19,016 nt of DNA. It comes from a virus. Its lineage: Duplodnaviria; Heunggongvirae; Uroviricota; Caudoviricetes. Positions within the stretch are counted from its first letter, which is position 1. Each line of letters opens with the position of its first letter. Below, one piece after another: positions 2,383-19,016 of the stretch. The position numbers were made by a program, and so were the translations under genes. The stretch spans positions 1 through 19,016 of the IMG/VR virus record IMGVR_UViG_2636416161_000001. The stretch is one strand, 5' to 3'. The notes beneath the pieces were generated by a model that searched no databases, was not told the DNA's origin, and saw only the letters and a list, made by a program, of their open reading frames with translations.

Positions 2383-2811
2383 CGCTGGCCCCGCTTCTCT
2401 GAATTGCCTTATGCCGCCACTCCAGCACATCAGTCAGCGGCATAACGTCAGTGATGGACGGCGACCAGTGAAAGATGGTGGCAATATCTGCCACCAGATC
2501 ATCAACCGTCAGGTTGTCGGCAAATCGGCAAGCACCGACTTCGGCAACAAAAAAGTCACCACCTCTACAGCCATTGCTGTCAGATCGGCGGGGTCCAGCT
2601 CTGCCATTTCCTGCGCGGTCAGCGTCGGAGTGGAGATTCGCGGGATCACAGTCATCATCGCGCCCACGTCCATATCCATAATGGCCTGCAGACGGGTGCC
2701 ACGCAGTGCGCCGGACTGCGGCTTGCGCAGCACAATTTCGGTAATTTCAGTTTTACCGCGCATGATGGGAGTATCCAGTTTTACGGTCTTTTCAGTCAGT
2801 TTGTCGCTCAT
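2375..2811 (-). CDS. E+E' tail assembly chaperone fusion made by programmed -1 frameshift (about 145 aa)
   Basis: Slippery heptamer T_TTT_TTG in the zero frame at 2554..2548 of the minus strand. The -1 frame, translated by hand, stays open for 57 codons (VAEVGACRFADNLTVDDLVADIATIFHWSPSITDVMPLTDVLEWRHKAIQRSGASDE) to TGA at 2377..2375, overlapping the T start. Analogous to P2 E/E' and lambda G/GT. Confidence 0.6.
2509..2811 (-). CDS. E: Tail assembly chaperone gpE (zero-frame product, 100 aa)
   Basis: ORF-track ORF MSDKLTEKTVKLDTPIMRGKTEITEIVLRKPQ...; ATG at 2811; lies between FII and T as in P2. Confidence 0.8.
   Translation of the reverse strand: MSDKLTEKTVKLDTPIMRGKTEITEIVLRKPQSGALRGTRLQAIMDMDVGAMMTVIPRISTPTLTAQEMAELDPADLTAMAVEVVTFLLPKSVLADLPTT
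2548..2554 (-). promoter_or_regulatory. -1 ribosomal frameshift slippery site TTTTTTG (X_XXY_YYZ phase)
   Basis: Plus strand shows c-aaaaaa-g at 2548..2555; the minus strand reads AC-T TTT TTG in the E frame (codons ACT 2556..2554, TTT 2553..2551, TTG 2550..2548). Confidence 0.6.
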
Positions 2812-2836
2812 GTTCGTTTCCTGTTAATAAACTACT

Positions 2837-2854
2837 GGCGCGGCTGCCCGCGCC
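2837..2854 (-). terminator. GC-rich hairpin between FII and E (possible attenuating terminator or mRNA stabiliser)
   Basis: ggcgcgg (2837..2843) pairs with ccgcgcc (2848..2854) around a 4-nt loop. On the minus-strand transcript it is followed by AGUAGUUUAUUAAC, an interrupted U tract. Confidence 0.35.
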
Positions 2855-2865
2855 GTTAAGGTTAA

Positions 2866-3381
2866 TCAGAGGCCGAGGGCGTTACGGTGTTCTTCCATCA
2901 GGTCCACGCCGTCAACGATTTCAACCATGTTGACCAGATCGACCTCATAGAGCACTTCGCCGTTAATGGTCAGCTTCGCGTAGCTGTTGGTGCTACTGAC
3001 CTTGGTGCTGCTGCTCTCGCCGGTTTTCCACTCGCCGGAATCCACTTCTTTATGACGCCCGCGCACAACCAGCTCAACAGCCTGCACTTCGCCGGTATCG
3101 TCGCGCTGAATGGAACCGGTGAAACGCAGCTGGATGCCGTCAACGGTGGCCTTGCCCATCTGCTTGAATAACAGCAGTTCGGTGCCGCCGATTGAAAATT
3201 CCGTGTCCAGTGCGCCGTCATCCAGCCCCATGTCCACGTCCACCGCGCCCGGCATACCGCCGCCGCGATACTTCTCAAACTTGCGGGTGAATTTCGGCAG
3301 GGTCAGAGACTCAACGATCCCCTGCCAGTTGTTCCCGTCGTTGAACAGGTTCAGATGTTTTAACTTGCGTGGTAAAGCCAT
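2866..3381 (-). CDS. FII: Tail tube protein FII
   Basis: 171 aa ORF MALPRKLKHLNLFNDGNNWQG... with a C-terminal ...MEEHRNALGL, recognised as P2 FII-like; starts 9 nt after the FI stop. Confidence 0.9.
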   Translation of the reverse strand: MALPRKLKHLNLFNDGNNWQGIVESLTLPKFTRKFEKYRGGGMPGAVDVDMGLDDGALDTEFSIGGTELLLFKQMGKATVDGIQLRFTGSIQRDDTGEVQAVELVVRGRHKEVDSGEWKTGESSSTKVSSTNSYAKLTINGEVLYEVDLVNMVEIVDGVDLMEEHRNALGL

Positions 3382-3390
3382 GGTGTCCCC

Positions 3391-4563
3391 TTACGCGCTG
3401 ACCTGGCTGGAGAAATCCAGCAGGTACTGATCGGTGATGCGCTGGCGCAGCATCAGGTTTTCAAGCGGCGGCACCGGCGTGTAGTCGTAGTCGATGGTGA
3501 GCTTCCCGGCTTTCAGGGAGTCTTTATCGTTCACCGACTCATCCAGCCAGCAGTCAGCGCCGATGATGTAGCCCTGCGTTTTCAGGCTGCGCAGCTTGGC
3601 GCGGATACCTTCGATAATGTCACGGGCCAGCGACGGGTTAAGCACGCCATCCACCGCCCACATGTGCGCTTCTGCGATGGTGTCAGCCAGCACCTGCGCC
3701 GTGCGGGTGTAGTTCTCAAAGGCAAACAGCGGATCGTCACTGAGGCAGCGGGAACCCCAGAAGCGGAAGCCATCTTTGCGGATAAGCGTGGTGACATCAT
3801 TCTGGTTCAGCAGCCCCGCATCGGTTGCCGGGTCCTGCAGGTCCCAGAACACATCTGCAGAAATGCCGGTGACGCCATTCACGCCCACGTTGGACAGGGT
3901 TTTGTGCCAGCCGGTCTGCTCGTCAATTTTGGCACGCAGGCCGAGCGCACGGGCGGAGGCGTAAGCCGTCGCGTCTGCATTCAGCACGGTGTCAAAGTTG
4001 ATGAAGTCAGGCCAGATCAGCATCCCCTCGCGCTGACTGAAATTGTCACGGTAGGCAATCGCTTCTTCTACCGTTTTGCAGCCATAAGCGGACAAGTAGG
4101 CAAACCCGCGCAGGCTCTGCGCCACGCTCAACAGCTCAGTAGCAACCGCCTGCGTGTCATGCCCCGGCACGCCGAGAATGCGCGGCTTGACGCCCAGCTG
4201 CGACTGCGCCGAAAGCAGCGCTTTCATACCCGTTTTTTTACCGTCAGCGGTCACGCCGCCGATAATGTTGGAGGTTGTTTCCGCTTCGGTTTCGCCCTGT
4301 GCCACGCGCACAACGACGGTCACGGGTTTAGCCTGGTCGGCAATGGCATCCAGCGAGCGGGCCAGCGTGCCGGACTCACCCGCTTTGCCGCTGGCGGTCA
4401 GCACATCGGTCAGCAGGACCGGCTTATTGAGGGGAAACATGGACGCATCAGCATCATCGCCGGTGCAGACCATGCCCACGATGGCGGTGCTCACCGTGGT
4501 AATGGATCGGGTGCCCTCGTTGACTTCAACAACGCGCACCCCGTGGTGGTAATCCTGAGCCAT
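3391..4563 (-). CDS. FI: Contractile tail sheath protein FI
   Basis: ORF-track ORF 3391..4665; the likely real start is the internal ATG at 4563 ([19 protein letters not shown]...), preceded by GGAGAG. Recognised as P2 FI-like along its length (...[25 protein letters not shown]...). Confidence 0.9.
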
Positions 4564-4636
4564 AAGGCAGTCTCTCCGGTTACAGGGGGTCTGCTTATGT
4601 TCTGAATGATGAGCACATAACGCACGCATCCTGCTA

Positions 4637-4654
4637 TGTGTCAGGCATGGCACA
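4637..4654 (-). promoter_or_regulatory. TGT-N12-ACA dyad, candidate Ogr/Delta-dependent late promoter element for the FI operon
   Basis: tgt gtcaggcatggc aca; centre lies 82.5 bp upstream of the FI ATG, in the 104-bp gap between the invertase stop and the FI start. Confidence 0.5.
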
Positions 4655-4667
4655 ACAAGCGGCAAAA

Positions 4668-5234
4668 CTATTGAGTGGAAGCTAACGGAGTGGCAGGGAA
4701 TTTTTTATAAAGCGTAGATACCCCCACATCAAAAATAAGGGCCACTCTTTGCCGGGTTTCGCCTGCAGCAATTAACCGCCCGGCTTGCTCCCACTGTTCC
4801 GGCGTTAACTTAGGCCGCCGTCCTCCTATTCTTCCTTGTACTCTTGCAGCAGCTAATCCCGCACGAGTTCTCTCAACGATTAACTCACGTTCCATTTCAG
4901 CCAGGGCGCCCATGATGTGAAAGAAAAAGCGCCCCATGGGTGTCGAGGTATCAATGCTGTCCGTCAGACTGCGGAAATTAACAGCCCGCTGCCGCAGTTC
5001 CTCCACGAGAACCACCAGATGCCGCATACTGCGCCCAAGTCGATCAAGCTTCCAGACAACCAACGTATCTCCCGGTGACAGGGTTTTAAGCAGCTTTTTT
5101 AATCCGGGGCGGTCCGATGTTTTACCGCTCATTTTGTCCTCAAAAATCAGCTCACATCCTGACCGCTCCAGCGCATCACGCTGCAGCGCCGTGTTTTGTT
5201 CATTTGTTGATACGCGCACATAGCCAACCTGCAT
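4668..5234 (-). CDS. Serine DNA invertase (Hin/Gin/Cin/Pin family)
   Basis: [38 protein letters not shown]...[15 protein letters not shown]...[35 protein letters not shown]...GVSTLYKKF: catalytic-serine N-terminal motif, resolvase core and C-terminal HTH. Start taken as ATG 5234 (the ORF-track start 5252 is TTG). AAGGGAA precedes the ATG. Confidence 0.9.
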
Positions 5235-5288
5235 CTGTTTTCCCTTATGCAAAAGCCCGAATGATGCCAGCCAGGCAGGAAAACTGCA

Positions 5289-5314
5289 TTTTCTTAAACG
5301 TTGGTTTAGGAGGA
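5289..5314. repeat. Invertase crossover site 1 (gix/hix-like)
   Basis: ttttcttaaacg TT ggtttaggagga; the right half resembles the gix half-site as I recall it (GGTTTACAGGAA). The core TT occupies codon positions 2-3 of the alternative fibre frame. Confidence 0.55.
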
Positions 5315-5644
5315 GCCGCTAAGTTAGATGCAGCAAGTGCATCATTTGGAGAAAATGGCTGGTTGAGATTACCTGTGCTACTTGGCACTGATAAAAAGAC
5401 GCTTATCATTCAATGGGCATACGGCACAGCTGGAGGATCAAATTCTACAGGGCTTGTTTGTAACTTCCCTTTCACCTTTCCAAATCAGGTATTTACAGTT
5501 ATGACTGGTAATGTCGATCAGACATATACGTCAACCTCTATTCCTGGAGCGATAGGGTTCTGCAATGTTACAAGGGCGTCAATTATTGCAAAAAGCACCT
5601 TGTCATCATCAGAACAATTCTATTATCTGGCTATAGGTTATTAA
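5300..5644 (+). CDS. Promoterless alternative tail-fibre C-terminal segment (Sv'-like), expressed only after inversion
   Basis: Open frame ...VGLGGAAKLDAASASFGENGWLRLPVLLGTDKKTLIIQWAYGTAGGSNSTGL...QFYYLAIGY, homologous to the present H C-terminus (...[18 protein letters not shown]...FNYLAIGY). No start codon of its own; in frame with H across the crossover core. Confidence 0.7.
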   Translation, partial: VGLGGAAKLDAASASFGENGWLRLPVLLGTDKKTLIIQWAYGTAGGSNSTGLVCNFPFTFPNQVFTVMTGNVDQTYTSTSIPGAIGFCNVTRASIIAKSTLSSSEQFYYLAIGY

Positions 5645-5645
5645 T

Positions 5646-6077
5646 ATGGATAAGTTTTTTTATAGTCCTTCCAAAAATGAGTTTTATCTTTCTGATTTAA
5701 GATCTGAATACCTTAAATCAGGGGCGTGGCCTGAGGATTCAGTGGAAGTTAGCGATGATATTGTATTTAACTTTATTCAGACGCCTGCTGAAAAAGGAAA
5801 GATGAGAATAGCAGGTGATGACGGCCTTCCGGCATGGACAGATATACCAGCACCAACTCAAGAAGACATAATTGCTGCAAATGAAGACAAAAAAGCAGCC
5901 CTGCGCGTTATTGCAGATTCAGAAATAGCATGGCGACAGGATGCCGTTGATGTAGGCATCGCGACGGAAGTTGAAACCGCCGCGCTTACTGAATGGAAAA
6001 AATACCGGGTGCTGCTGATGCGTGTTGAAACAGCAGACCCGGAATGGCCTACGCCTCCGGCGACTCAGGCCAGTTAA
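5646..6077 (+). CDS. Tail fibre assembly protein (alternative copy, lambda Tfa-like)
   Basis: MDKFFYSPSKNEFY... N-terminus and ...TEWKKYRVLLMRVETADPEWPTPP C-terminus; ATG lies 1 nt after the alternative fibre stop. Confidence 0.8.
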   Translation: MDKFFYSPSKNEFYLSDLRSEYLKSGAWPEDSVEVSDDIVFNFIQTPAEKGKMRIAGDDGLPAWTDIPAPTQEDIIAANEDKKAALRVIADSEIAWRQDAVDVGIATEVETAALTEWKKYRVLLMRVETADPEWPTPPATQAS

Positions 6078-6483
6078 TATCTGGTGCGCCGGAGGTGTCT
6101 ACGGCCTCCAGCGCATCGAGATAATCCAGCCACAGATTATATTGCCCTTTTTCCACGTCTTTCAGGCGACCTAAAGCGGCTTTGCCGGGCCACTGCTTAC
6201 TATTGATGTAATTGTTCGCTTGTTCAATAAGGTATTGTTTTTTTGCTTCAGCATTTGCAATTAACTCATCTTGTGTAGGTTCAGGGCGCAGAACCCAGAC
6301 TGGCATGTTTTTATCGCTAACCCCACGAATCATTCCCTCAGGTGGAATTCCTGTGAACTCTATAAAAATAGAATCTTCTACATCAACTCCATCCTCCGGC
6401 CATGAGTCTGTTGCTTCGTATGAAGTTTTTAGCTCAAACGGATAGAAAGCATTTTTTGATGGACTAAAAATATAATTTCCCAT
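6049..6483 (-). CDS. Tail fibre assembly protein (copy expressed in the current orientation)
   Basis: MGNYIFSPSKNAFYPFEL... (ATG 6483, 1 nt after the H stop; the ORF track extends to 6495). C-terminus ...DINWPESPEA. Its 3' end overlaps the convergent tfa' by 29 nt. Confidence 0.8.
   Translation of the reverse strand: MGNYIFSPSKNAFYPFELKTSYEATDSWPEDGVDVEDSIFIEFTGIPPEGMIRGVSDKNMPVWVLRPEPTQDELIANAEAKKQYLIEQANNYINSKQWPGKAALGRLKDVEKGQYNLWLDYLDALEAVDTSGAPDINWPESPEA
6052..6097. other. Dyad symmetry at the overlapping 3' ends of the two tfa genes, near the centre of the invertible segment
   Basis: cgcctccggcg (6052..6062) and cgccggaggtg (6087..6097) form an 11-bp inverted repeat with one mismatch, with inner ccag/ctgg pairing. 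Dyad centre 6074.5 versus segment centre 6067.5. Confidence 0.4.
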
Positions 6484-6484
6484 G

Positions 6485-7882
6485 TCAGTACCCAATCGCT
6501 AAATAGTTAAAGGCATCCGAGTTAGCTGCGGCTGACTTCGCAATAAACCCAGTGGTAGTGGGCGACGAAATACCGACTGCTGCTGGCTGTTGTTCTGAAG
6601 TATAAGAGGGGTCAATCTGCCCGGTCGTAATGATGATAATCCCTGACGGGAATGGAATTGGGAACGTATTAGATATTCCCGTTGATGCTGAGTTACCTGC
6701 ATTCGCAGATCCCCACTGCAAAATGTATCCTCCCGGTAGTTTTTGATACCCAGATCCTGACGCGAAGGCGGACATGTCCGGTATCTGATTTGCCCCCGTC
6801 CCGACATTCCTTTTCGATGCCGTTCCCAAACCAAGGTATGCGAGAAGACCAGCTACATCCTTTCCACTCAAATGAGTCAGCGTATTGTCCAGCGGTTGTT
6901 TACCTGCCAGTGCATTAAGCATTGTCGTGGCAAAGTTCGGGTCATTCCCCAGCGCCGCCGCCAGTTCGTTCAGTGTATCCAGTGCCGCAGGTGCAGAACC
7001 CACCATTGCCGCAATCGCCGATTTCACAAAAGCCGTAGTGGCAATCTGTGTATTGTTGACCGACTGTGCCGCCGTGGGGGCTGTTGGCGTTCCGGTGAGT
7101 GCCGGACTCGACAACGGTGCTTTTAGTGCCAGCACATTGTTAATGGTGGTACTGAAATTCGGATCATTGTTAATGGCTGCGGCTATTTCTTTCAGCGTGT
7201 CCAGCGTGGCTGGCGCACCATTAATAAGGGCCGTCAGTGCCGCCTGTACAAACGCGGTGGTCGCAAGCTGCGTGGTATTATTCCCCGCCGCTGGCGTTGG
7301 CGCTTTGGGGGTTCCGGTAAACGTTGGACTTTCTTTGGGTGCATACTGTGAATGCGGGTCCGGCGCGGCAAGATGTTTTGCCATCAGGTCATCCACGTAC
7401 ACCTTCAGCTCCAGTGCCTTGTCATCCACATACTTGCGGGTTGCCAGCACTACAGCAGGGTCGATTTTCAGGGTGATATTGTCCGTGCTGCTGGTAATCA
7501 GCACCATGCGCACGGTCTGGGTACGCCCGCTGCCTTCAGCCAGTTGCGGCTTATAGCTTTCCGGGCAGTTGCCCACGGCAATCAATGCCCCGGACTCATC
7601 AAACAGACCCACTTCACGTATCCACCAACCACCCTCATTTTCAGGGATCACCTGTTCAGCAATAATCTGGCTGCTGTTCTGCGGGTCGATATAGAGCATA
7701 TTCAGCGCAGCCCGGCGTTTCTCATTTACCAGTGCCGTCTGCTTTGCGTCCGGCGTCGGCAATGCTCCGCCGCCATCGCCCACCGCCATATGGGTAATTT
7801 TTAGCGGCACACCGAGCGCGGCGGCGCTGGCAAGTTTCGCCGCGCCAATATCCGTCAGCAGGGTATAAAATTTTGTGCTCAT
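6485..7882 (-). CDS. H: Tail fibre protein gpH (constant N-terminal part plus currently fused variable C-terminus)
   Basis: 465 aa [42 protein letters not shown]..., recognised as P2 gpH-like at the N-terminus. Start overlaps the I stop (ATGA). C-terminus ends ...NYLAIGY. Confidence 0.9.
6821..6846. repeat. Invertase crossover site 2 (gix/hix-like), inside H
   Basis: cgttcccaaacc AA ggtatgcgagaa; left half close to the gix-type half-site TTCC..AAACC. Core is inverted relative to site 1 and in the same codon phase (H codons TAC CTT GGT TTG GGA = YLGLG). Confidence 0.55.
6887..7327 (-). repeat. Tandem duplicated module of about 74 aa (about 222 bp) inside H
   Basis: [72 protein letters not shown] and [72 protein letters not shown], visible also as diverged nucleotide repeats. 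Confidence 0.5.
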
Positions 7883-8484
7883 GGATTCACTCTCATTGTG
7901 TCAATAACATGGACCGCCCCGCCTTCATGCGCGGTGCCGCCGGAAATAATTGTTTCGTTGATATACGGATAGATCGTGATTTCTTCGCCAAGATAGCTGG
8001 CGGCCCCCACCCAATGCGGACCGCTGGTCTGCAGATTGATGGACATGCCGATCATGTGACGGCTACATGGTTTGGCATCGCTTATCAGCCGCTCAAGTTC
8101 CAGATAGGTATCTTCAGTGATGCCCTGGTCCTGCACGCCGATATCCAGGCGAAACGTGCCCGGTGTTTCTCCGGTCTGCCACCACTCAATAATGCGGATC
8201 AGGAAGCCGAACGGCTCCACCACCCGCCGTACGGCACTGGTGGTTCCTTTGTGCTGATGAATATAAAAAGCATCCTTCACTACCTGGCGTTTGACGCTTT
8301 CTGTCCAGCCCTCGTCCCAGCGATCCACAGAGAACGCCCAGGCGAGATAAGGCAGGAAACTGACCGGACAGGTTGCCGGATTCCACAAGTCACGAAGCGG
8401 CACCTGCAGATCAGAAATCCCGCTGCAGGTTTGCGCCAGTCGGCGCTCCAGTGAAGTTGAACCCGGTGGCAGCAGACTATTCAT
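7879..8484 (-). CDS. I: Baseplate assembly protein gpI
   Basis: 201 aa ORF ...[29 protein letters not shown]...GTFRLDIGV..., recognised as P2 gpI-like; ATG 8484; stop overlaps the H start. Confidence 0.85.
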
Positions 8485-9385
8485 CCGTTCCTCCGTTGGT
8501 TACGCTCCACTGCGTACATGATGCGGCCTGTGTTTTGTTCAGGACCACATCCGCCAGCGGTGAAGCCAGCTCCACACGTTGAACCCCCTCAACATGCAGC
8601 GCGGCAAAAATGGCACTACGGCGAATATCCCGACCAAGCCGCGTCTGACTGGCGATGTACTTCTGCAGGCTGGCTTTTGCCGCTGCCATTACCGGCTCCG
8701 CTTCCGGTCCCGGATAGAGAAAAATGGAGGCTTCCACACGTTACGGGATGATTTCTGCACTGCGAACCGTCAGACGGTCAGCCACCGGGCGGACGTTCTC
8801 ACTGTTCAGGGCTTTTTCCACCACATCCAGCAGGTCTTTTTCTGCTGTTCCGTCGCCTTCGCGGCTAAGGACTGTCAGCACCACCTCTGCAGGTGCCGGA
8901 CTGGTTGCACTGGCATCCGCCACCCGACCGTCGGCGCTTCGGGCATGAAATTCATAAGCTGCAGTTGGCCCCGCAACTGAAAGCCCCTCAAAGGCTGCAG
9001 GCACACGCAGGCGTAACGCTTCATCGCTTTCCATCACAGCTGCAACGGGCGGCACAGCGTCATCATCAGCAGGCGTCACCGTCAGGCGTTTCACGTTGTA
9101 GTTGGCAGCGAGCTGGTCAAGATCGCTGCCCATCGCGTAAGCCACCATCACAGCCTGCGCGGCTTCGTTAATGCGCTGGCGCAGAAGCAACTCACGGTAA
9201 GCGTTCTCCTGCAGCAATTTGGTGACGGGTTCAGATTCCAGTTCCAGCGTGCGGATCACTGCTTCCTGCTCATCTTTCGGATGAAGCGCCACAAATTCGG
9301 CCTTGCGTTCGGCAAGCAGCGTCTCAAAGTCCGGCACATCCACAATCTGCGGCGCAGGCAACTGCGAAAGGTCAATCACTGCCAT
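8477..9385 (-). pseudogene. J: Baseplate protein gpJ interrupted by an in-frame TAA (ochre) at 8743..8741
   Basis: Two ORF-track ORFs, 8741..9424 and 8477..8737, are in the same frame, separated only by TAA plus one codon: ...RLTVRSAEIIP * RVEASIFLYPGPEAEP.... Likely start MAVIDLSQLPAP at 9385 (AGGAG upstream). Joined length is about 302 codons. Confidence 0.7.
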
Positions 9386-9731
9386 TCTCTGCTCCTGTTG
9401 ATACGGAAAGGGAAACAGGCACACCGTTATTACGCCGCCCGGTCAGCTCCACCACCATAGAACCGTCAAAGTTGCTGTTGATGGTGATGGAATCAAGCGT
9501 CAGCCGTGGCTCCCAGCGACTCAGCGCCGCATACACTGCCGACATGACCTGCAGGCGTAATGCCGGATTTTGTGGCTGGTCTATCAGTGCCGACAGCAGG
9601 GAACCATATTCCCGACGGGCAATGCGGCTACCCTGTGGCGTCAGCAGAATGTCCCGCACCGACTGGCGCAGATGGTCAATATCAGTAATGACTTTGCCGC
9701 TGGTATTGTTCATCCCGCTATAAAGCGTCAT
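9372..9731 (-). CDS. W: Baseplate wedge protein gpW (gp25/GPW family)
   Basis: 119 aa ORF MTLYSGMNNTSGKVITDIDHLRQSVRDILLTPQGSRIARREYGS...; ATG 9731 overlaps the V stop. Confidence 0.85.
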   Translation of the reverse strand: MTLYSGMNNTSGKVITDIDHLRQSVRDILLTPQGSRIARREYGSLLSALIDQPQNPALRLQVMSAVYAALSRWEPRLTLDSITINSNFDGSMVVELTGRRNNGVPVSLSVSTGAENGSD

Positions 9732-10306
9732 ACCGGGCCTCCGGTTGTATCGCCGCCTTTCAGGACGCCGGTATGCTGATGCGCATCAACCACGATCCCG
9801 TTAGAACTCATCGCTCCGCCGCCCTGGGTAACGCCACCATTGATCACCACTTCGCTGTTAATGCGCGTGCGGTCAGCCTCCAGTACAAACTCACTGGTTT
9901 TCATGGTGATGTTGTCAGCGGCCTCAATGACCATTGATTTGATGCCCCTGACATACCAGCGCCCGGTGGCGGGTTCGTATTCAAACCAGCCACCGTCAGG
10001 ATGTTCTGTCACGCAGGCGTCCGCCGACGTCGACGGTGGCGCGAACTGATTCGAATAGATGGCGGGTAACGCAAAGGCGGTTTCCAGATTGCCGCCCAGA
10101 CTCAGCAGCACCACCTGCTCACCTTCCGATGGTCGCCACCATGTGCGGGCATTCCCGGCACGCAGCGTCAGCCAGCTGATCCAGTTGGTTTCAAGCTCGC
10201 CCGTTTTCACCCGGCAAAGCCAGTTTTCCCTGTCCACTTCGGTGACTACCCCAGTGCGGATCAGGTTGGTGATAAGGCGCATGATTTCGGTTAATTGTGC
10301 GTTCAT
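9728..10306 (-). CDS. V: Baseplate central spike protein gpV
   Basis: 192 aa ORF MNAQLTEIMRLITNLIRTGVVTEVDRENWLCRVKTGELETNWISWLTLRAGNARTWWRPSEGEQ..., recognised as P2 gpV-like. Confidence 0.85.
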   Translation of the reverse strand: MNAQLTEIMRLITNLIRTGVVTEVDRENWLCRVKTGELETNWISWLTLRAGNARTWWRPSEGEQVVLLSLGGNLETAFALPAIYSNQFAPPSTSADACVTEHPDGGWFEYEPATGRWYVRGIKSMVIEAADNITMKTSEFVLEADRTRINSEVVINGGVTQGGGAMSSNGIVVDAHQHTGVLKGGDTTGGPV

Positions 10307-10352
10307 AGGGAAAGGTTGCCATCAGGGGAAGAAAGGCGGCAGTGCTGCAACT

Positions 10353-10370
10353 TGTATCAGTGCTGATACA
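10353..10370 (-). promoter_or_regulatory. TGT-N12-ACA dyad (perfect 20-bp palindrome TTGTATCAGTGCTGATACAA), candidate late promoter element for the V operon
   Basis: Located in the 68-bp S-V gap; centre is 55.5 bp upstream of the V ATG; no Shine-Dalgarno evident before V. Confidence 0.5.
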
Positions 10371-10374
10371 AAGA

Positions 10375-10821
10375 TCACTCCGCCAGCCATTGCAGAATCA
10401 TGTCGCGGGTCATTGCCTCAACATCATCATTTACACCCAGCAGGCGGCGCTCTGCGTAACGGACCTCCGGTCCTTTGCGACTGACGCGATCACGCAGGCC
10501 GTAATGGTGAACACGGGCAATACGCTGCACCTTGCCTTCAAACTGTACGCTGGCAGAGTCGGCGCTGGCGGCAGTTTTCAGGTATTTTGTGGTGCGCAGC
10601 TTTGCAAACATCTGACGTTTGATGCGGCCTTTTTTACTGCGTGCTGTTACCCGTCGCGGTTCATAGCTGCTGCCGTCAGGGTTGCGCTGCATCCTGATGT
10701 TCTGCTGCTGTGTCCGGCGCAGTTCCTGCGCCAGCTGGCGCATCATGCGACTTCTGGCGGCTGGCTCCAGATTCGCCAGCAAGGCACTCAGCCAGTCGTC
10801 CACTTTCTGCAGTTCAGCCAC
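10375..10821 (-). CDS. S: Tail completion / virion morphogenesis protein gpS
   Basis: 148 aa ORF ...RNPDGSSYEPRRVTARSKKGRIKRQMFAKLRT...; start codon at 10821 is GTG, overlapping the R stop. Confidence 0.8.
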   Translation of the reverse strand: MAELQKVDDWLSALLANLEPAARSRMMRQLAQELRRTQQQNIRMQRNPDGSSYEPRRVTARSKKGRIKRQMFAKLRTTKYLKTAASADSASVQFEGKVQRIARVHHYGLRDRVSRKGPEVRYAERRLLGVNDDVEAMTRDMILQWLAE

Positions 10822-11245
10822 GTTTCACCGTCCACATTTCTTCAGGTTCATCAGGTTCCGCTACAGCTTCAACGCTCGACACACTGCCGTCAGTGCTGAC
10901 CAGCACACGCTCCGTCAGTTGCAGGTTCAGGCTGATATCACAGACATCGTTGCGCAGAATATCCACCTCAAAGGTGAATAGTTTTTCCCGTAACGCCGGG
11001 TTATTGATGGCATCGGGCTGGTTATCCCTCAGCCACAGCAAAACCGGGGCCATCAGCAGATTCTGGTCGCCGCTGAAATCCTCAATCACCGCATTCAGGG
11101 TGTAACGGTACTCCCACGACATGGAGCTGGCCCCCGTGGCAACCAGCGAACCGTTATCCACAAACAGATGCAGTTTGTCCGGGTTATTGCGGACATAAGG
11201 CACCGCTTTATTGAGGGCGTGGCGCAGGGATTGTGGTTTGTTCAC
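10814..11245 (-). CDS. R: Tail completion protein gpR
   Basis: ...LHLFVDNGSLVATGASSMSWEYRYTLNAVIEDFSGDQNLLMAPVLLWLRDNQPD...; the ORF-track start 11266 is TTG. Preferred start is GTG at 11245 (VNKPQSLRHAL), preceded by AGGAG at -8. Confidence 0.75.
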   Translation of the reverse strand: MNKPQSLRHALNKAVPYVRNNPDKLHLFVDNGSLVATGASSMSWEYRYTLNAVIEDFSGDQNLLMAPVLLWLRDNQPDAINNPALREKLFTFEVDILRNDVCDISLNLQLTERVLVSTDGSVSSVEAVAEPDEPEEMWTVKRG

Positions 11246-11498
11246 TGTTTCGCTCCTGACACGCAATAATCATGTCCACTTTGTCTGCACAGACCGCCCA
11301 GGCGGCCTCCGTTTCATCCAGCAACGCGTCCAGATCACCGTTAGTGCGCGGCGTTGCCTGCTCCAGCCGACACGGCGTCACTCGCGGACAACCACTGACG
11401 GTAAGCTGCACCTCCGGTGAGTGTCGGACGTTCCCGCAGCCGGATAATGTCAGCAGGCAAAGGAGTATCAGCCCAGCGGCGTAAATCCTCGTTCTCAC
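11208..11498 (-). CDS. Rz1-like outer-membrane lipoprotein o-spanin (LysC-like), embedded out of frame in lysB and running into R
   Basis: MRTRIYAAGLILLCLLTLSGC... has a lipobox LSGC and a Pro-rich mature part. GTG start at 11498 preceded by GAGGAG. Overlaps lysB (11341..11769) in another frame. Confidence 0.65.
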   Translation of the reverse strand: MRTRIYAAGLILLCLLTLSGCGNVRHSPEVQLTVSGCPRVTPCRLEQATPRTNGDLDALLDETEAAWAVCADKVDMIIACQERNSEQTTIPAPRPQ

Positions 11499-11769
11499 GT
11501 TTCAGCTCCTCGATCCGGTGTTGTCGTTGTCTCAGCAGCGCGCTGGTCTGTTCTGCTTCGGCATAGAGCCGCGCCTGCTCCCGGTTATTTGTTTCAGTCA
11601 GAATGGACAGGCTAATAAGCTGGCTGTTGCTCTTTGCCAGTGCCTGGCTTTTGCTCTGCAGCTCGTCTGACTGCGTGCTGATGGTCTGGCTGGCATCAGC
11701 CAGCCGCCACGTCTGCCAGCCCAGCGCCGCCAGTAATAACGCCAGCACAACCAGCAGCAACCGGTTCAT
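11341..11769 (-). CDS. Rz-like i-spanin (LysB-like)
   Basis: N-terminal TM segment MNRLLLVVLALLLAALGW, then a coiled-coil-type charged region (...QRQHRIEELKRENEDLRRW...); ATG 11769 overlaps the lysA stop. Confidence 0.75.
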   Translation of the reverse strand: MNRLLLVVLALLLAALGWQTWRLADASQTISTQSDELQSKSQALAKSNSQLISLSILTETNNREQARLYAEAEQTSALLRQRQHRIEELKRENEDLRRWADTPLPADIIRLRERPTLTGGAAYRQWLSASDAVSAGAGNAAH

Positions 11770-12143
11770 GCTGCTACCTGTTGCGCCATCTGATTACGGG
11801 TGATCCAGAAGGCAATAACGGTCAGCAGATAAAAGACCAGGGTAATAGCCCACCCCGTCCAGGCGAGACTTACGACAACCAGCAATCGCATCACCCAACT
11901 GATAAATACGTTTTCTTTTCGGGTAATTGTCTTCAGCAAAGATGCCCTTAACTCCTGCCAGAGCGGGCTATTCTTAATTAACGCAGCCAGTGCTACCGGA
12001 ATTACCGCCCATGTCAGCAAACAGGCTACCCAAACGCCGGACGCTGCCAGTACCGGAAAAATCCCCTGCGGATACACCATTGCTGCGATTAACAACGCCA
12101 TCCATAACATCAGAAACAGTCCGCTGATTAATTTCTTTTTCAT
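11766..12143 (-). CDS. LysA-like polytopic membrane protein (lysis timing; function inferred)
   Basis: MKKKLISGLFLMLWMALLIAAMVYP... with about 4 hydrophobic segments. ATG at 12143 is 1 nt after the endolysin stop and preceded by GGGAG; the ORF-track start at 12215 is an upstream extension into the endolysin. Confidence 0.6.
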   Translation of the reverse strand: MKKKLISGLFLMLWMALLIAAMVYPQGIFPVLAASGVWVACLLTWAVIPVALAALIKNSPLWQELRASLLKTITRKENVFISWVMRLLVVVSLAWTGWAITLVFYLLTVIAFWITRNQMAQQVAA

Positions 12144-12144
12144 T

Positions 12145-12657
12145 TCAGTTTGCTCCCTGTAAACACCAGGCCATCTCCCGCGCACGGCGGTTATCCAGCC
12201 CCTGATTAAACACACCTTTTACATAAACCCAGCGCGGCAACTGTCGGCACGCATCCGCCCAGCGCCGCTGATTGAGCAATTTCACCAGCGTGGAGCTGCA
12301 GGCATTGCCTGTCCCCACGTTGAAGGCAAACGACACCACCGAGTCATACACCTTTTGTGGCGGCTGTTGCTTCACACATCTTTCCAGCGCCCGCTCCACA
12401 CGCAGCACGTTGGAGATAAGCCCTTCTGCTGCCTGTCGTTCCGTAATGGTTTTGCCGGGAATGACGCCCGACGTATTACCAATGCCGTCAGTCCATACAC
12501 CCGCGCTGCACTGATACGGCTGCAGACGACAGCCTTCGTAATCGGCAATCAGTTTCAGTCCTTCCACGGAGGTGTGAAGCTGCTGAAAACCCGGCAGCGT
12601 GGCAGCAATAGCCAGCACGGTCCCGACAAGGCAGCGTTTAACGATTGATGGATTCAT
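12145..12657 (-). CDS. SAR (signal-anchor-release) endolysin, T4-lysozyme-like
   Basis: N-terminal weakly hydrophobic Gly/Ala-rich segment KRCLVGTVLAIAATLPG, then a lysozyme catalytic region (VEGLKLIADYEGCRLQPYQ...GVWTDGIGNT) resembling the phage 21 R / P1 Lyz type. Confidence 0.8.
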   Translation of the reverse strand: MNPSIVKRCLVGTVLAIAATLPGFQQLHTSVEGLKLIADYEGCRLQPYQCSAGVWTDGIGNTSGVIPGKTITERQAAEGLISNVLRVERALERCVKQQPPQKVYDSVVSFAFNVGTGNACSSTLVKLLNQRRWADACRQLPRWVYVKGVFNQGLDNRRAREMAWCLQGAN

Positions 12658-12853
12658 AGTCCTCCCGCGTGATCTGCCCGTCGCGCAGAAGCTGGTAGGC
12701 TTTGTGTTTGTAGTACCAGTTGATAGCCAGCATCAGCACACCGATCATCAGGCCGCCCAGCGTTGAGGCATCCTTGATGGACAAATCGCCCAGCCAGGCC
12801 AGCACGACGGCGATGCAATACGTGATAAAGGCGCTGATTCGCTCAAGCGTCAT
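12638..12853 (-). CDS. Small two-TMD holin (pinholin-like)
   Basis: 71 aa with two hydrophobic segments (ISAFITYCIAVVLAWLG; LGGLMIGVLMLAINWYY) and a charged C-terminus. Overlaps the endolysin start by 20 nt and sits directly upstream of a SAR endolysin. Confidence 0.7.
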   Translation of the reverse strand: MTLERISAFITYCIAVVLAWLGDLSIKDASTLGGLMIGVLMLAINWYYKHKAYQLLRDGQITREDYESINR

Positions 12854-12856
12854 AAT

Positions 12857-13060
12857 TCAGTCCCATAGCTGGACGGTCTGCACGGTGGTGGTTGTCGGAA
12901 TGTCCGGCAGCTCCACCTGCAGCCCGTGAGGTAAAAAGGGGCCATATTCGGCAAGCCCCGGATTTGCCTTCAGTACCTGCTCCGTGACACCCTGCGTGCG
13001 CCCGTAATGACGCCAGCAAAGCGCGTCCACCGTGTCATACTGATGCGCACGCACTTTCAT
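12857..13060 (-). CDS. X: Tail protein gpX
   Basis: 67 aa ORF MKVRAHQYDTVDALCWRHYGRTQGVTEQVLKANPGLAEYGPFLPHGLQVELPDI... recognised as P2 gpX-like; ATGA overlap with L. Confidence 0.8.
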   Translation of the reverse strand: MKVRAHQYDTVDALCWRHYGRTQGVTEQVLKANPGLAEYGPFLPHGLQVELPDIPTTTTVQTVQLWD

Positions 13061-13524
13061 CAGATAAGCTCCACTGTGCAGTGCGGCGCGTCCTGTACCC
13101 GGCTGATGGCCCAGCGGGCGTCACGCCATAAATCACCGCTGGCTTCCGCCAGTTCCTCGCCCCGCTTCACACCGGATGCCGTGGCGTCATAGTCCTGGTA
13201 ACGTTCGTTGAGCATGGCGCGTGCCCAGCAGTAAACCGCGTTGAAATAGTGCTGAATGCGCTCACTTTTGCCGTCCAGCTGTTCCGCCGGAACCTCTGCC
13301 AGCGAGGCATACCCCAGCATCTGCTGGCGTCTGCGAAACTCATACAGCTCTGCGTTGACCTCCGAAATTGCCGACAGCGCAACCTGCTTTAAACGCGGCT
13401 GCGTCACCGTGCCGTCAGTGCGCATGACACTGCGAAACTCCGACAGGTCCACATCAGGCCAGAACGGCGTATTTCTGATGATTTCCGCCTGTTCCGGTGC
13501 CTGTTCTGGCGCAACAAACTTCAT
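13060..13524 (-). CDS. L: Head completion / stabilisation protein gpL
   Basis: ...FWPDVDLSEFRSVMRTDGTVTQPRLKQVALSAISEVNAELYEFRRRQ...; preferred start ATG 13524 (MKFVAPEQ...) with AGGAGA at -8. The ORF-track start at 13587 is GTG, giving 175 aa. Confidence 0.8.
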   Translation of the reverse strand: MKFVAPEQAPEQAEIIRNTPFWPDVDLSEFRSVMRTDGTVTQPRLKQVALSAISEVNAELYEFRRRQQMLGYASLAEVPAEQLDGKSERIQHYFNAVYCWARAMLNERYQDYDATASGVKRGEELAEASGDLWRDARWAISRVQDAPHCTVELI

Positions 13525-13619
13525 GCTGCTTTCTCCTGAAATAGAGGGCGGTGGACGGGGTTTTGATGTGGCAGTGCCTTTCGCCACCCCGTGCCGCCCG
13601 TGCGCGGGGGCACGTTCTG

Positions 13620-14270
13620 TCAGCGGCTGTCATTGCGCAGTCTGCGCTCCAGCTGCTGTTTGTCTTTTTTCACGCCACAGCGGGGATCGAGCTGTAACGC
13701 ATGGTTGAGATGATTAAGGGCAGACGCCGGATTGCTTTCACTCAGGACCGCGCCAATCGCTTTATGCAGACGCGCCCGTGACTGGTCCGGCATATCCAGA
13801 CCGTCTGTCAGCTCCAGCGTCTGCAGCAACAGATCGGCATCAAAGCCGGTGGTGGCAAGCATTGCGCTCTGCGCGGCGTCTGCCATTTCCTCTGCCAGCA
13901 CGGTCTGCACGTTGCGGTTACCCAGCGGCATCACCCAGCCATGACGCAGGGCATGACGCCCGATCTCCAGCGCTCCGGCATAATCTCCGGCATCAATGCG
14001 CCACAGCATCACGTACATCAGCACGTCATCCTGTTGAGCGCCTCCGGCAGCCAGGACACCCTCTGCCCAGGCGGCGTACTTCGGCAGCAGCTCCACCTTG
14101 ATTTCCGCTTTTTTGACCGTGGACTGAACGCCCTTGAGACGGCGGCGGTCTTCCGCCAGTTGCAGCAGCATCAGGTCATAGCCCGATGCGTGGCGAACAC
14201 TGCCGCCCTCGCGGGCGGCCTGTTCAGCCTGAACGCGCAGGCGATGCTGCCGTGCGGGACTCAGGCTCAT
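13620..14270 (-). CDS. M: Terminase small (endonuclease) subunit gpM
   Basis: 216 aa ORF MSLSPARQHRLRVQAEQAAREGGSVRHASGYDLMLLQLAEDRRRLK...GAQQDDVLMYVMLWRIDAGDYAGALEIGRHAL... recognised as P2 gpM-like. Confidence 0.85.
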   Translation of the reverse strand: MSLSPARQHRLRVQAEQAAREGGSVRHASGYDLMLLQLAEDRRRLKGVQSTVKKAEIKVELLPKYAAWAEGVLAAGGAQQDDVLMYVMLWRIDAGDYAGALEIGRHALRHGWVMPLGNRNVQTVLAEEMADAAQSAMLATTGFDADLLLQTLELTDGLDMPDQSRARLHKAIGAVLSESNPASALNHLNHALQLDPRCGVKKDKQQLERRLRNDSR

Positions 14271-14273
14271 GGA

Positions 14274-15332
14274 TTACGCTCCGGTTTCGGCTGCGGCGGC
14301 GCTGAAATCACCAATCTGGATGTTTTCCACCAGTGCGGCGCAGCGGTAGTCCTCAACCACATAGGCTTCGTTAACGGATTCAAAGTTTTCAATCCGGTCA
14401 CGTTTCGGGTTGTCGATAACTGAACGGCGGCGGGTGTCTTCCTGCCAGTAGATGGACAGGTTATCCAGACGGGTGATCAGCAGCGCATTCGGCGGGAAGA
14501 ACGGCGCACGCACGGCCTGCAGACCGCCCATGCGTTTCTGACTGATAATCATATCGGCAGCCAGTTTTTCACTGTTTTCCTGCTCTTTGTTGACCAGCGG
14601 GAAATACTTGTCAGACAGCAGTTCACGCCCGCAAATCACCACCAGATCGTCATCGTCCTGGTAGACCACGTCGATAAGCTCATTAACGGCATCCATCACC
14701 ACGGCGTCCAGGTTGGCATATTCGCCACCTTTACCGACTTTCACCGCGCCCGGTGTGGTTTCACCGCCCGTGGTGGTGCTGCCCATGACGTGATCCGGTG
14801 CATCCTCACGGATTTTCTGTAACCAGCCTTTGTTCACATCCTGCAGCAGCGGGTTTTCGCTACGGTTGGAGGTTTTCGCACGCTTCACGCCGTTAAAGCC
14901 GATCATGATGCGGTCCAGTGCCTGACGTTTCACGATGGCGTCACGGATACGCACCTGGAAATCCTGAAACTTCGCCCACAGGTCCAGCTTCGCGTAGGTC
15001 AGCACCGTGTCAAAGTTAGTCTGCTCGCATTTATATTCCACATCGACCATCAGCGTCGGATCGACAGGCTCACGCTCTTTAGCTGTGGTATCAGTGGTTC
15101 CGGCAATGGTGCTGCCAACACCCAACCCCAGCAGCTGACCGGACTGCTCAGTCACTGGCGTGACGTTAATCAGCGTCAGGAATGCGGCGGACTGCTGGAT
15201 CTGATCTTCCAGCGTCTGCTGCACAGACGGCTCTACAGTGAACTTGCTGGACAGTTCTTCAACGGCCACACCGTTCAGACGCGCCAGCTGCTGCAGGTAA
15301 GCGTTAAAAGCAAAGCGGGTATTCTTCTTCAT
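14274..15332 (-). CDS. N: Major capsid protein gpN
   Basis: 352 aa ORF MKKNTRFAFNAYLQQLARLNGVAVEELSSKFTVEPSVQQTLEDQIQQSAAFLTLINV... recognised as P2 gpN-like. Confidence 0.9.
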   Translation of the reverse strand: MKKNTRFAFNAYLQQLARLNGVAVEELSSKFTVEPSVQQTLEDQIQQSAAFLTLINVTPVTEQSGQLLGLGVGSTIAGTTDTTAKEREPVDPTLMVDVEYKCEQTNFDTVLTYAKLDLWAKFQDFQVRIRDAIVKRQALDRIMIGFNGVKRAKTSNRSENPLLQDVNKGWLQKIREDAPDHVMGSTTTGGETTPGAVKVGKGGEYANLDAVVMDAVNELIDVVYQDDDDLVVICGRELLSDKYFPLVNKEQENSEKLAADMIISQKRMGGLQAVRAPFFPPNALLITRLDNLSIYWQEDTRRRSVIDNPKRDRIENFESVNEAYVVEDYRCAALVENIQIGDFSAAAAETGA

Positions 15333-15348
15333 CGGGTTTTGTGCTCCA

Positions 15349-16182
15349 TCAGCAATTGGTCAGAGTGTCAGCGGGGGCGTTACCGCCTGTTGCACGCTGG
15401 CGGTAGTCCTGGCGGCTGTCTTCATGACTCAGCTTATTCACCAGTTCGTTAAAGGCGGTCTGCTGTGCCTGCAGGGCAGTCTCCAGCTCAGACAGACGTT
15501 CTTCCTGCTCAGACAGGGATTTTTCGGTGCGTACGCTCAGGTTTTGCTGCTCAGTGGCGACCAACTCCACGGCCTTATGCACATCAGAGAACCGGGCATC
15601 GTCGGACTGCTCTTTTTTGGTGAACAGTGCCGTGACGCGGGCAAACAGGGACGGCTTGTCCTCCTGGATTTCTTCCAGTTCGATCACCGTTTCCTCTGCG
15701 GCGGTAAAGAGATTGGCGGGATTCTGCTTGCGGTTTGCCAGCGGGTTATGGGCTGCACTGGCGCTGAATGTCAGCATTTCAGTGCCCAGACTGGCAGGAT
15801 CATCAGTGGCAGCCAGGCCGACCAGGTAGGCTTTGCCCGTATCAGCAAACTTCGGGCTGACTTCCATAGAGGTGAATAATTTCTGGCCTTTTTTCACCAG
15901 TTCCACCAGGGATTCCGTTGGCTCAACGTCGGCATACAGCGCCATCTTGCCTGCCAACGGACCTTCTGTGATTTCTTCAGCAAACAGCGCCGTCACCTTG
16001 CCGTAGCGGTTAAAGGTGCTGTCCGGCAGATAAGACTTGATGTGCTCAAGGTTAATCAGCGCGGTATACACCGCCGGGTTGTAGCTGGCTGCCATCTGTT
16101 CCAGCCATTCACGCTGGATTTCGCGTCCGTCGGTGGTGGCACCTTCCACCCCGATGCGAAAACGCTTTGCTTTCACTGTCAT
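15349..16182 (-). CDS. O: Capsid scaffolding protein gpO
   Basis: 277 aa ORF MTVKAKRFRIGVEGATTDGREIQREWLEQMAASYNPAVYTALINLEHIK... recognised as P2 gpO-like; GGAG precedes the ATG. Confidence 0.9.
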   Translation of the reverse strand: MTVKAKRFRIGVEGATTDGREIQREWLEQMAASYNPAVYTALINLEHIKSYLPDSTFNRYGKVTALFAEEITEGPLAGKMALYADVEPTESLVELVKKGQKLFTSMEVSPKFADTGKAYLVGLAATDDPASLGTEMLTFSASAAHNPLANRKQNPANLFTAAEETVIELEEIQEDKPSLFARVTALFTKKEQSDDARFSDVHKAVELVATEQQNLSVRTEKSLSEQEERLSELETALQAQQTAFNELVNKLSHEDSRQDYRQRATGGNAPADTLTNC

Positions 16183-16260
16183 GAGCCGTGCTCCGTTAGA
16201 AAAAACTTACTGGAGCCTTATGGTTGCGGTGATGGGGGCAGTGAAACAATGCGCGGTATT

Positions 16261-16278
16261 TGTACCGACAACCACACA
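16261..16278. promoter_or_regulatory. TGT-N12-ACA dyad in the divergent O/P intergenic region (candidate late promoter element for O, P or both)
   Basis: tgt accgacaaccac aca; centre is 87.5 bp from the O ATG and 55.5 bp from the P ATG. It is the only perfect dyad in the 142-bp gap. Confidence 0.5.
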
Positions 16279-16324
16279 AACCGCAGGCGGGGAAAGCCTT
16301 CATTCAAGGCTGTAGGTTTGTGCC

Positions 16325-18091: not shown

Positions 18092-19016
18092 TGGGAAAGA
18101 GTAAGAAGAACCGAGCTGCGGCGACGAAACAGATCCAGCTTAAAAGTCAAACTACAGCCGAAGCATTCAGCTTCGGCGATCCCGTTCCTGTTCTGGACCG
18201 CCGTGAACTGCTGGACTATGTGGAATGCGTACAGATGGACCGTTGGTATGAGCCGCCCGTCAGCTTTGACGGACTGGCGCGCACCTTCCGCGCCGCCGTG
18301 CATCACAGTTCCCCGATTGCAGTAAAGTGCAACATTCTGACCAGTACCTATATCCCTCATCCGCTGCTCAGCCAGCAGGCTTTTTCGCGTTTTGTGCAGG
18401 ACTATCTGGTATTTGGTAACGCCTACCTGGAGAAACGCACGAACCGATTCGGTGAAGTTATCGCCCTTGAGCCAGCCCTGGCAAAATACACCCGACGTGG
18501 ATTAGACCTGGATACCTACTGGTTTGTGCAATACGGCATGACAACGCAACCGTATCAGTTCACGAAAGGCAGCATTTTTCACCTGATGGAACCGGATATC
18601 AACCAGGAGATCTACGGCCTGCCCGGTTATCTTTCTGCCATTCCGTCAGCCCTGCTCAACGAGTCCGCCACGCTGTTCCGTCGAAAGTATTACATTAACG
18701 GCAGTCATGCAGGCTTCATCATGTACATGACCGACGCCGCGCAGAACCAGGAGGATGTAAACAACCTCCGTAACGCGATGAAAAGCGCCAAAGGACCAGG
18801 TAACTTCCGCAATCTGTTTATGTACTCGCCTAACGGCAAAAAGGACGGACTTCAGATCATCCCATTGTCAGAAGTCGCGGCGAAGGATGAGTTTCTGAAT
18901 ATCAAAAATGTCAGCCGCGATGACATGATGGCAGCGCACCGTGTGCCACCGCAAATGATGGGGATTATGCCGAATAATGTTGGGGGGTTTGGGGATGTGG
19001 AGAAGGCAAGCCGTGT
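18091..19016 (+). CDS. Q: Portal (capsid vertex) protein gpQ, 3' end outside the window
   Basis: ATG at 18091, then an open frame to the window end (MGKSKKNRAAATKQIQLKSQTTAEAFSFGDPVPVLDRRELLDYVE...); position after P matches the P2 P-Q operon. Confidence 0.85.
   Translation, partial: MGKSKKNRAAATKQIQLKSQTTAEAFSFGDPVPVLDRRELLDYVECVQMDRWYEPPVSFDGLARTFRAAVHHSSPIAVKCNILTSTYIPHPLLSQQAFSRFVQDYLVFGNAYLEKRTNRFGEVIALEPALAKYTRRGLDLDTYWFVQYGMTTQPYQFTKGSIFHLMEPDINQEIYGLPGYLSAIPSALLNESATLFRRKYYINGSHAGFIMYMTDAAQNQEDVNNLRNAMKSAKGPGNFRNLFMYSPNGKKDGLQIIPLSEVAAKDEFLNIKNVSRDDMMAAHRVPPQMMGIMPNNVGGFGDVEKASR

Follow-up and report, generated by a model that had tools for sequence, protein, structure and literature searches.

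The locus described here raises a simple question. Gene J of a P2-like prophage is divided by an in-frame ochre codon, and either the prophage has lost a working baseplate gene or the deposited sequence is in error at this point. P2 J is an essential baseplate gene, and its nonsense (amber) mutants are classical, giving no functional tails in non-suppressing hosts. The stretch of DNA analysed, referred to throughout as the window, is 19,016 nucleotides long and is the whole of contig CCCR010000126.1 (19,016 bp) from assembly GCA_000723325.1 of Escherichia coli D6-117.29, an ST10, phylogroup A strain isolated from severe bovine clinical mastitis (PMC5519002).

Gene J and the late region that surrounds it

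The contig spans the late-gene region of a P2-like prophage (Peduoviridae, Elveevirus-like), and its DNA is ∼95–96% identical to that of two Elveevirus phages, Klebsiella phage 4LV2017 and Escherichia phage Cartapus. Its genes run in the order Q, P / O, N, M, L, X, holin, lysozyme, LysA, LysB/LysC, R and S, continuing with V, W, J, I, H, the fibre chaperones, a DNA invertase, sheath, tube, E/E′ and T. When the MB51 reference late-gene proteins were compared with the window, stop-free products were found for 25 of the 26 that had a match, J being the sole exception. For most of those 25 products the alignment is full-length; T and Q are truncated by the ends of the contig, and the match is partial for the invertase and a fibre chaperone. 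No tRNA or tmRNA gene was found in the window by ARAGORN, and no Rfam family has a match there. In P2, a −1 frameshift in the tail chaperones yields E+E′; the corresponding pair in the window (2375-2811) is intact and has a P2-like arrangement, with E (100 aa) at 2509-2811 and a 39-aa ‘GpE family’ ORF at 2378-2494. The coordinates of gene J, its neighbours and the other features discussed below are collected in Table 1.

Table 1. Positions of gene J, its two changed codons and other features within the window
Feature	Position	Strand	Remarks
Tape measure gene T	1-2382		794 of 925 codons present; interrupted by contig end
Resolvase/Hin-type invertase	4668-5252	minus	Fibre switch
Alternative fibre C-terminus	5261-5644	plus	Fibre switch
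Crossover-like site AAACGTTGGTTT	5296-5307		Inverted relative to AAACCAAGGTAT
Fibre-chaperone gene (first)	5646-6077	plus	Opposed to the second chaperone gene
Fibre-chaperone gene (second)	6049-6483	minus	Opposed to the first chaperone gene
Fibre gene H	6485-7882	minus	Fibre switch
Crossover-like site AAACCAAGGTAT	6828-6839		Inverted relative to AAACGTTGGTTT
Gene I	7879..8484	minus	201 aa, intact; wedge partner of J; ATG overlaps the end of J by 8 nt; own GGAGG (ΔG of −9.5)
Whole gene J	8477..9385	minus	P2 gpJ / Baseplate_J / pyocin PA0618-type wedge protein; 302 codons + TAG
C-terminal ORF of J	8477..8737	minus	86 codons from GTG (codon 217); deposited as CDP75845.1, ‘Protein of unknown function’; precomputed Pfam Baseplate_J_C
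Second private change	8728	minus	ACC to TCC, Thr220Ser; transversion, 13 nt downstream of the stop
Ochre codon TAA	8743..8741	minus	Codon 215 of gene J, numbered from the ATG at 9385
N-terminal ORF of J	8744..9385	minus	214 codons; deposited as CDP75846.1, ‘Baseplate J family protein’; precomputed Pfam Baseplate_J_N + Baseplate_J_M
Gene W	9372..9731	minus	gp25-like sheath initiator, 119 aa, intact; upstream of J in the V-W-J-I-H operon
Portal gene Q	18091-19016		308 of 348 codons present; interrupted by contig end

Read on the minus strand in the frame of the gene, positions 8760..8720 give ...GCA GAA ATC ATC CCG TAA CGT GTG GAA GCC TCC..., and translation of 9385..8477 gives 214 sense codons, the TAA, 87 further in-frame sense codons and a TAG at 8479..8477. 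The total of 302 codons is the length of the annotated homologues that were fetched (909-nt CDS, named ‘baseplate assembly protein’ or ‘baseplate J protein’). In a tblastn comparison, residues 1-302 of the intact J of E. coli MB51 align to 9385..8480 of the window with zero gaps and one internal stop, and the change is therefore a substitution, neither an indel nor a frameshift. Thus the sequence-only reading of the locus, which had placed two J ORFs in one frame parted by the TAA, put their joined length at about 302 codons, that of full gpJ, and proposed a single nonsense substitution rather than a deletion or frameshift, was correct on each of these points.

As deposited, J is a pseudogene: it lacks an uninterrupted frame of ∼300 codons and is annotated as two CDSs. 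J homologues are carried by 1,039 of 5,426 complete E. coli genomes. Since the frame is conserved in more than 1,000 complete genomes of the species, and J is the only stop-bearing product among the 26 matched, this is no chance break in an open reading frame.

The identity of the gene follows from profile matches, full-length homology to a solved structure and operon position. The Baseplate_J profile (PF04865) matches the J of an intact relative with E = 6.6e-24 and 85 bits (cut-off 21.1); it also matches the 214-aa piece from the window, with E = 7.9e-14 and only up to position 205 of the 255 in the profile. The pyocin protein PA0618 (6U5B) aligns with J residues 3-302 (E = 3.6e-106), and its C-terminal domain (5CES) with J 209-302; the query used here was the intact J of BE311, which differs from that of the window at residues 87, 215 (the stop) and 220 only. 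Genes V, W, J, I and H lie in this order on the minus strand, with overlapping starts and stops as in the annotated relatives. On these grounds J is a member of the gpJ / Baseplate_J / gp6-like family.

Relatives of the prophage and a pair of private changes

Codon 215 encodes tyrosine throughout the relatives examined. It is TAC in BE311, D9 and the three close relatives L014, L015 and L016 described below, and TAT in phage Cartapus (DNA alignment); one or other of these codons is present in all 15 relatives fetched. Tyrosine also occupies the aligned position in PA0618 (IVPYQV) and, as judged by eye, in J homologues of 45-70% identity. The expectation from the sequence alone that homologues would have Tyr here, with TAY to TAA a single step, is thus borne out.

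The stop itself appears to be private to this contig. The TAA allele was not found in the 5,426 complete E. coli genomes, when searched with a 40-mer whose 28-mers all span the stop; the TAC version of the same query matches 143 of these genomes, which shows that the 28-mer search works. The TAA context was likewise not found, as exact or degenerate patterns, in the GTDB species representatives, the JGI metagenomes or IMG/VR, and among 15 billion proteins the 214-aa product occurs on one contig only. A second change, Thr220Ser, lies close to the stop (Table 1). The same kind of search did not find Ser220 (TCC) in the 5,426 complete E. coli genomes, and in an exact look-up a protein with Tyr215 and Ser220 is absent among the 15 billion, while that with Tyr215 and Thr220, in which both changes are reverted, is matched exactly on 10 public contigs.

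The closest relatives were chosen by means of the window's rare tail-fibre protein H, which is present on seven contigs, and three independent contigs were compared: L014 (GCA_012374675.1), L015 (GCA_017891385.1) and L016 (a Logan assembly of SRR25248512). In none of the three is J interrupted, and its product has 302 aa. Both L014 and L016 can be aligned to the window over 1..17882 free of gaps, and over 1..15124 they differ from it at exactly two positions, 8741 (TAC in place of TAA) and 8728 (ACC in place of TCC); L015 agrees with the window wherever it is aligned. The remaining 48 differences between the window and L014/L016 all fall in 15125..17758. There is thus a sharp mosaic boundary, with 2 differences in 1-15124 and 48 in 15125-17758 (genes N, O and P), and the pattern indicates a recombinational replacement of the capsid/terminase segment.

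At 8741 the changed base is G to T on the plus strand, or C to A on the coding strand. Both J changes are transversions that alter the protein, and for two independent differences placed in 15,124 nt a separation of 13 nt or less has a chance of ∼26/15,124, or ∼0.002; the pair was accordingly treated as one event. From its spacing and its absence elsewhere, it looks like one private event, either a fresh clustered mutation or a local read or assembly error. A single genuine mutation can also produce two clustered substitutions at once, as in a short patch of error-prone repair. Gene conversion or template switching from a donor within the window, as the source of both changes, was considered and rejected: the 19-mer, with up to three mismatches allowed, matches only its own site there. 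By eye, the changes destroy, and do not improve, a small GTGG/CCAC hairpin.

Over a wider panel of 10-12 relatives (94-97% identity), the window has 74 panel-private differences, comprising 58 synonymous, 13 non-synonymous and 3 intergenic changes, or 53 transitions and 21 transversions. Judged from this distribution, these differences are real divergence under purifying selection, unlike random error. The remaining panel-private differences beyond 15125 are all synonymous (9 of 9). The contig is therefore not generally error-prone, and the J pair is an isolated anomaly in clean sequence.

The relatives also differ in other parts of the late region. Across the whole window the closest complete-genome relative is E. 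coli ET734, in which (L006 14868-16577) M, the terminase small subunit gene, and N, the major capsid gene, are annotated as frameshifted pseudogenes; these frameshifts reflect either another decaying copy of this type of prophage or homopolymer errors of assembly. Window 4668-7882 has the layout of an invertible tail-fibre switch in the style of the Mu G segment and the P1 C segment, and from L015 the segment with the invertase and the alternative tip (window 4721-5839) is missing. In E. coli E41 (L007 12073-13296) a SIR2-family gene is inserted between S and V, and an IS1 adjoins the fibre genes; in other relatives DUF262, PIN, AIPR or reverse-transcriptase genes lie just past the portal gene. 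These genes look like defence-type cargo at P2 hotspots. The S/V junction in the window has no insert.

A lesion in the strain or an error in the draft

The genome of D6-117.29 is a ‘direct submission’ in 980 contigs, with an N50 of 9,488 bp and a largest contig of 69 kb; it has 19 annotated tRNAs, compared with 57-66 in sister strains, both contig 21 and contig 854 have the same wca genes, and later users of the genome noted an excess of singleton ORFs and the need for assembly by hand (PMC5422975 and its supplements). Illumina HiSeq 2000 sequencing and Velvet assembly were used for two sister strains, which come from the same laboratory and have adjacent accession prefixes; the genome announcement describing them omits D6-117.29 (PMC4392153). 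The papers on the strain give assembly statistics only, and no sequencing method, coverage, or mention of a prophage or of induction was found in them. Illumina, used for the sister strains, was probably the platform here too. Genes interrupted at both contig ends, together with the number of contigs, the N50 of 9.5 kb and the duplicated wca genes, mark the assembly as fragmented and partly redundant.

We put at about even the chance that the deposited sequence is a J null allele present in the DNA of the strain, in which a single event changed two bases 13 nt apart. The change from Tyr215 to ochre requires one step and no indel, and the relatives keep the tyrosine. The other 25 matched late-gene products are stop-free, so that the stop would be the earliest damage to a phage that was active until recently, and nonsense mutations are a normal way for prophage decay to begin. 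In addition, the identity of the window with L014 and L016 at every other position of 1..15124 means that the other bases are perfectly accurate over 15 kb. At good depth, the Illumina HiSeq 2000 rarely gives consensus substitution errors. Counted against a real lesion are the presence of the stop in one assembly only, the resemblance of an isolated pair of transversions to a bad read or a wrong graph path, and the poor quality of a draft with 980 contigs and duplicated wca genes that was never formally described.

It is also quite possible, with a probability that we place slightly short of even, that J is intact in the strain (TAC, ACC) and that the two wrong bases come from one low-quality read or an erroneous de Bruijn path. 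The error would then lie in a thinly covered part of a poor draft, and no biology would follow. The J pair is the sole difference from independent assemblies in 15,124 nt, at a spacing improbable for independent events, and consists of two non-synonymous transversions, neither of which was found in the collections searched for each. The form with both changes reverted is known, and the intermediate with Ser220 alone is absent from the 15 billion proteins. A spacing of 13 nt, shorter than a read or a k-mer, is what a single bad read or graph path typically produces and independent mutations typically do not. The state of the draft (contig number, N50, tRNA count and the wca genes on contigs 21 and 854), the omission of the strain from its authors' genome announcement and the many singleton ORFs flagged by later users all point the same way. 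However, an error would have had to occur in a contig with zero other differences over 15 kb, in which the nine remaining panel-private differences beyond 15125 are all synonymous, and at a site in mid-contig, 8.7 kb from the nearer end, in sequence that is unrepeated within the window. Consensus substitution errors would also be uncommon if the platform was Illumina, and a nonsense mutation is an ordinary opening of prophage decay.

The sequence-only reading had named a tail-defective prophage and a sequencing or assembly error as the two main alternatives, and exactly these survive the tests. It overlooked the linked transversion 13 nt away and the very fragmented state of the source draft, and an artefact is likelier than it had implied.

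That the stop is real and the function of J nevertheless kept, by ochre suppression through a host tRNA, by readthrough or by a two-piece J restarted at GTG217 or ATG233, we consider very improbable. Still less probable is the specific proposal that the phage builds its tails from a two-piece J restarted at one of these codons, with the C-terminal dimerisation domain docking non-covalently; if true, a gp6-like baseplate protein would here be naturally divided at a domain edge. The GTG that begins the 86-codon ORF is only 3 nt past the TAA, but it has no Shine–Dalgarno match (duplex ΔG of +0.2 kcal/mol), so that restart there would depend on termination-reinitiation alone. ATG233 has a modest match (ΔG of −5.8, compared with −6.6 for the J start). 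The break falls between the Baseplate_J_M and Baseplate_J_C models (precomputed Pfam), and the homologous C-terminal domain of PA0618 folds alone (5CES); however, the crystallised domain aligns from residue 209, and products started at GTG217 or ATG233 would lack its first 8 or 24 residues. An AlphaFold model of the 86-aa piece alone has a mean pLDDT of 49.9, too low for use. Suppression or readthrough finds no encouragement in the relatives, in that no homologue has a stop at this position, and hence there is no sign of selection for recoding, nor in the window, which has no tRNA gene.

The lengths of homologous proteins bear on the same point. The 214-aa piece was searched against 1.84 billion cluster representatives, giving 2,633 matches; the best 150 of these have a median length of 299.5 aa and include 99 proteins of 285-340 aa, so that a short or split J is not conserved, and intact homologues do not end at the residue equivalent to the stop, as the sequence-only reading had allowed they might. 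The few J proteins of 213-240 aa that were examined mostly have unrelated tails, as in frameshifted or contig-end fragments, and the short members of the 90% clusters are labelled ‘partial’. We therefore rejected a naturally split, two-gene J, which has no conserved short or split form among the homologues examined. Programmed readthrough or recoding was rejected with the stop conserved in none of the 15 relatives and the TAA context absent from the collections searched, and a phage-borne suppressor tRNA with no ochre-reading tRNA gene found in the window by ARAGORN. Outside the window, two deposited 86-aa C-terminal J fragments (P0024 and P0026) start at the same GTG/Val217 (VDATIFLYPG...). 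One is from a 9,193-bp JGI contig and the other, labelled ‘partial’, from Salmonella Teshie; possible origins are truncation at a contig end or an independent disruption just upstream.

Expected effects of the stop and comparison with known systems

Each baseplate wedge of this type contains two gp6-like proteins and one gp7-like protein (PA0619, P2 gpI), joined by an N-terminal helical core bundle, and the C-terminal domains of gp6-like proteins in neighbouring wedges dimerise, closing six wedges into a ring (PMC10457771, PMC11329794, PMC10811340). In the pyocin the wedge is (PA0618)2-PA0619, fastened to its neighbours by this C-terminal dimerisation (PMC10457771, PMC11329794), and it is PA0618 dimers that link the wedges into the ring (PMC10457771).

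If the stop is real, translation would end after residue 214. The N-terminal helical part, the builder of the (J)2-I wedge core bundle by comparison with PA0618-type and T4 gp6-type proteins, would be kept, and residues 215-302, which correspond to a C-terminal domain that folds on its own in the PA0618 homologue, would be lost. Of the part of J (209-302) that matches the C-terminal domain crystallised alone, only the first six residues come before the stop. Without this domain the wedges would not be fastened into the baseplate ring, and neither polymerisation of tube and sheath nor attachment of the fibres would follow. Homology to the gp6-like proteins thus leads us to expect a defect in assembly. 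An induced lysogen would lyse and release DNA-filled heads, with no tails and no infective particles; heads and lysis are still expected because the head, packaging and lysis genes are intact.

The stop would also leave ∼260 nt of untranslated mRNA ahead of gene I. Rho-type polarity on I, H and the fibre chaperone is plausible, and expression of these genes may be lowered by it. Nonsense polarity was a classical tool for mapping the P2 late operons. A promoter and terminator scan of 7800..9500 gave nothing bearing on restart or polarity.

P2 gene J is the same gene, in the same V-W-J-I-H late operon of a P2-type myovirus, and relatives of the window's gene are annotated as ‘P2 baseplate protein J homolog’. 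In contrast to the P2 J mutants, the window has an ochre and not an amber codon, in a prophage of a natural isolate and not in a laboratory mutant, and the allele is known from one assembly; the phage is Elveevirus-like and is not P2 itself. R2-pyocin PA0618 (Tri1; PDB 6U5B and 6U5K) is a full-length homologue with the tyrosine aligned, but it is an intact tailocin protein, whereas the J of the window is interrupted. A gp6-like role is common to T4 gp6, Vibrio phage XM1 gp16, diffocin CD1371 and phage Milano BW2 (PMC10457771, PMC11329794, PMC10811340); T4 gp6 and the gp6-like proteins are much larger or more diverged than J, and are linked to it through the equation of PA0618 with gp6 in the literature. 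Point-mutated, defective prophages of enterobacteria likewise have one structural gene inactivated by a single change and are otherwise complete (compare M and N of ET734). The present case differs from these in having one nonsense codon with a linked neighbour in a copy that is otherwise identical to intact ones and, if real, would mark the very start of decay.

Whichever reading holds, the event is of a known kind and involves no new mechanism, and its significance beyond the strain is very small. If it is an artefact, it illustrates that nonsense codons seen in a single assembly of a fragmented draft need read support before they are counted as pseudogenes, a warning that is strongest for stops with a second private change a few bases away. 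If the stop is real, the P2-like prophage of mastitis isolate D6-117.29 would be unable to form infective particles while still able to kill its host on induction, and would be a clean instance of prophage decay at its very first step, a single event in an otherwise perfect copy.
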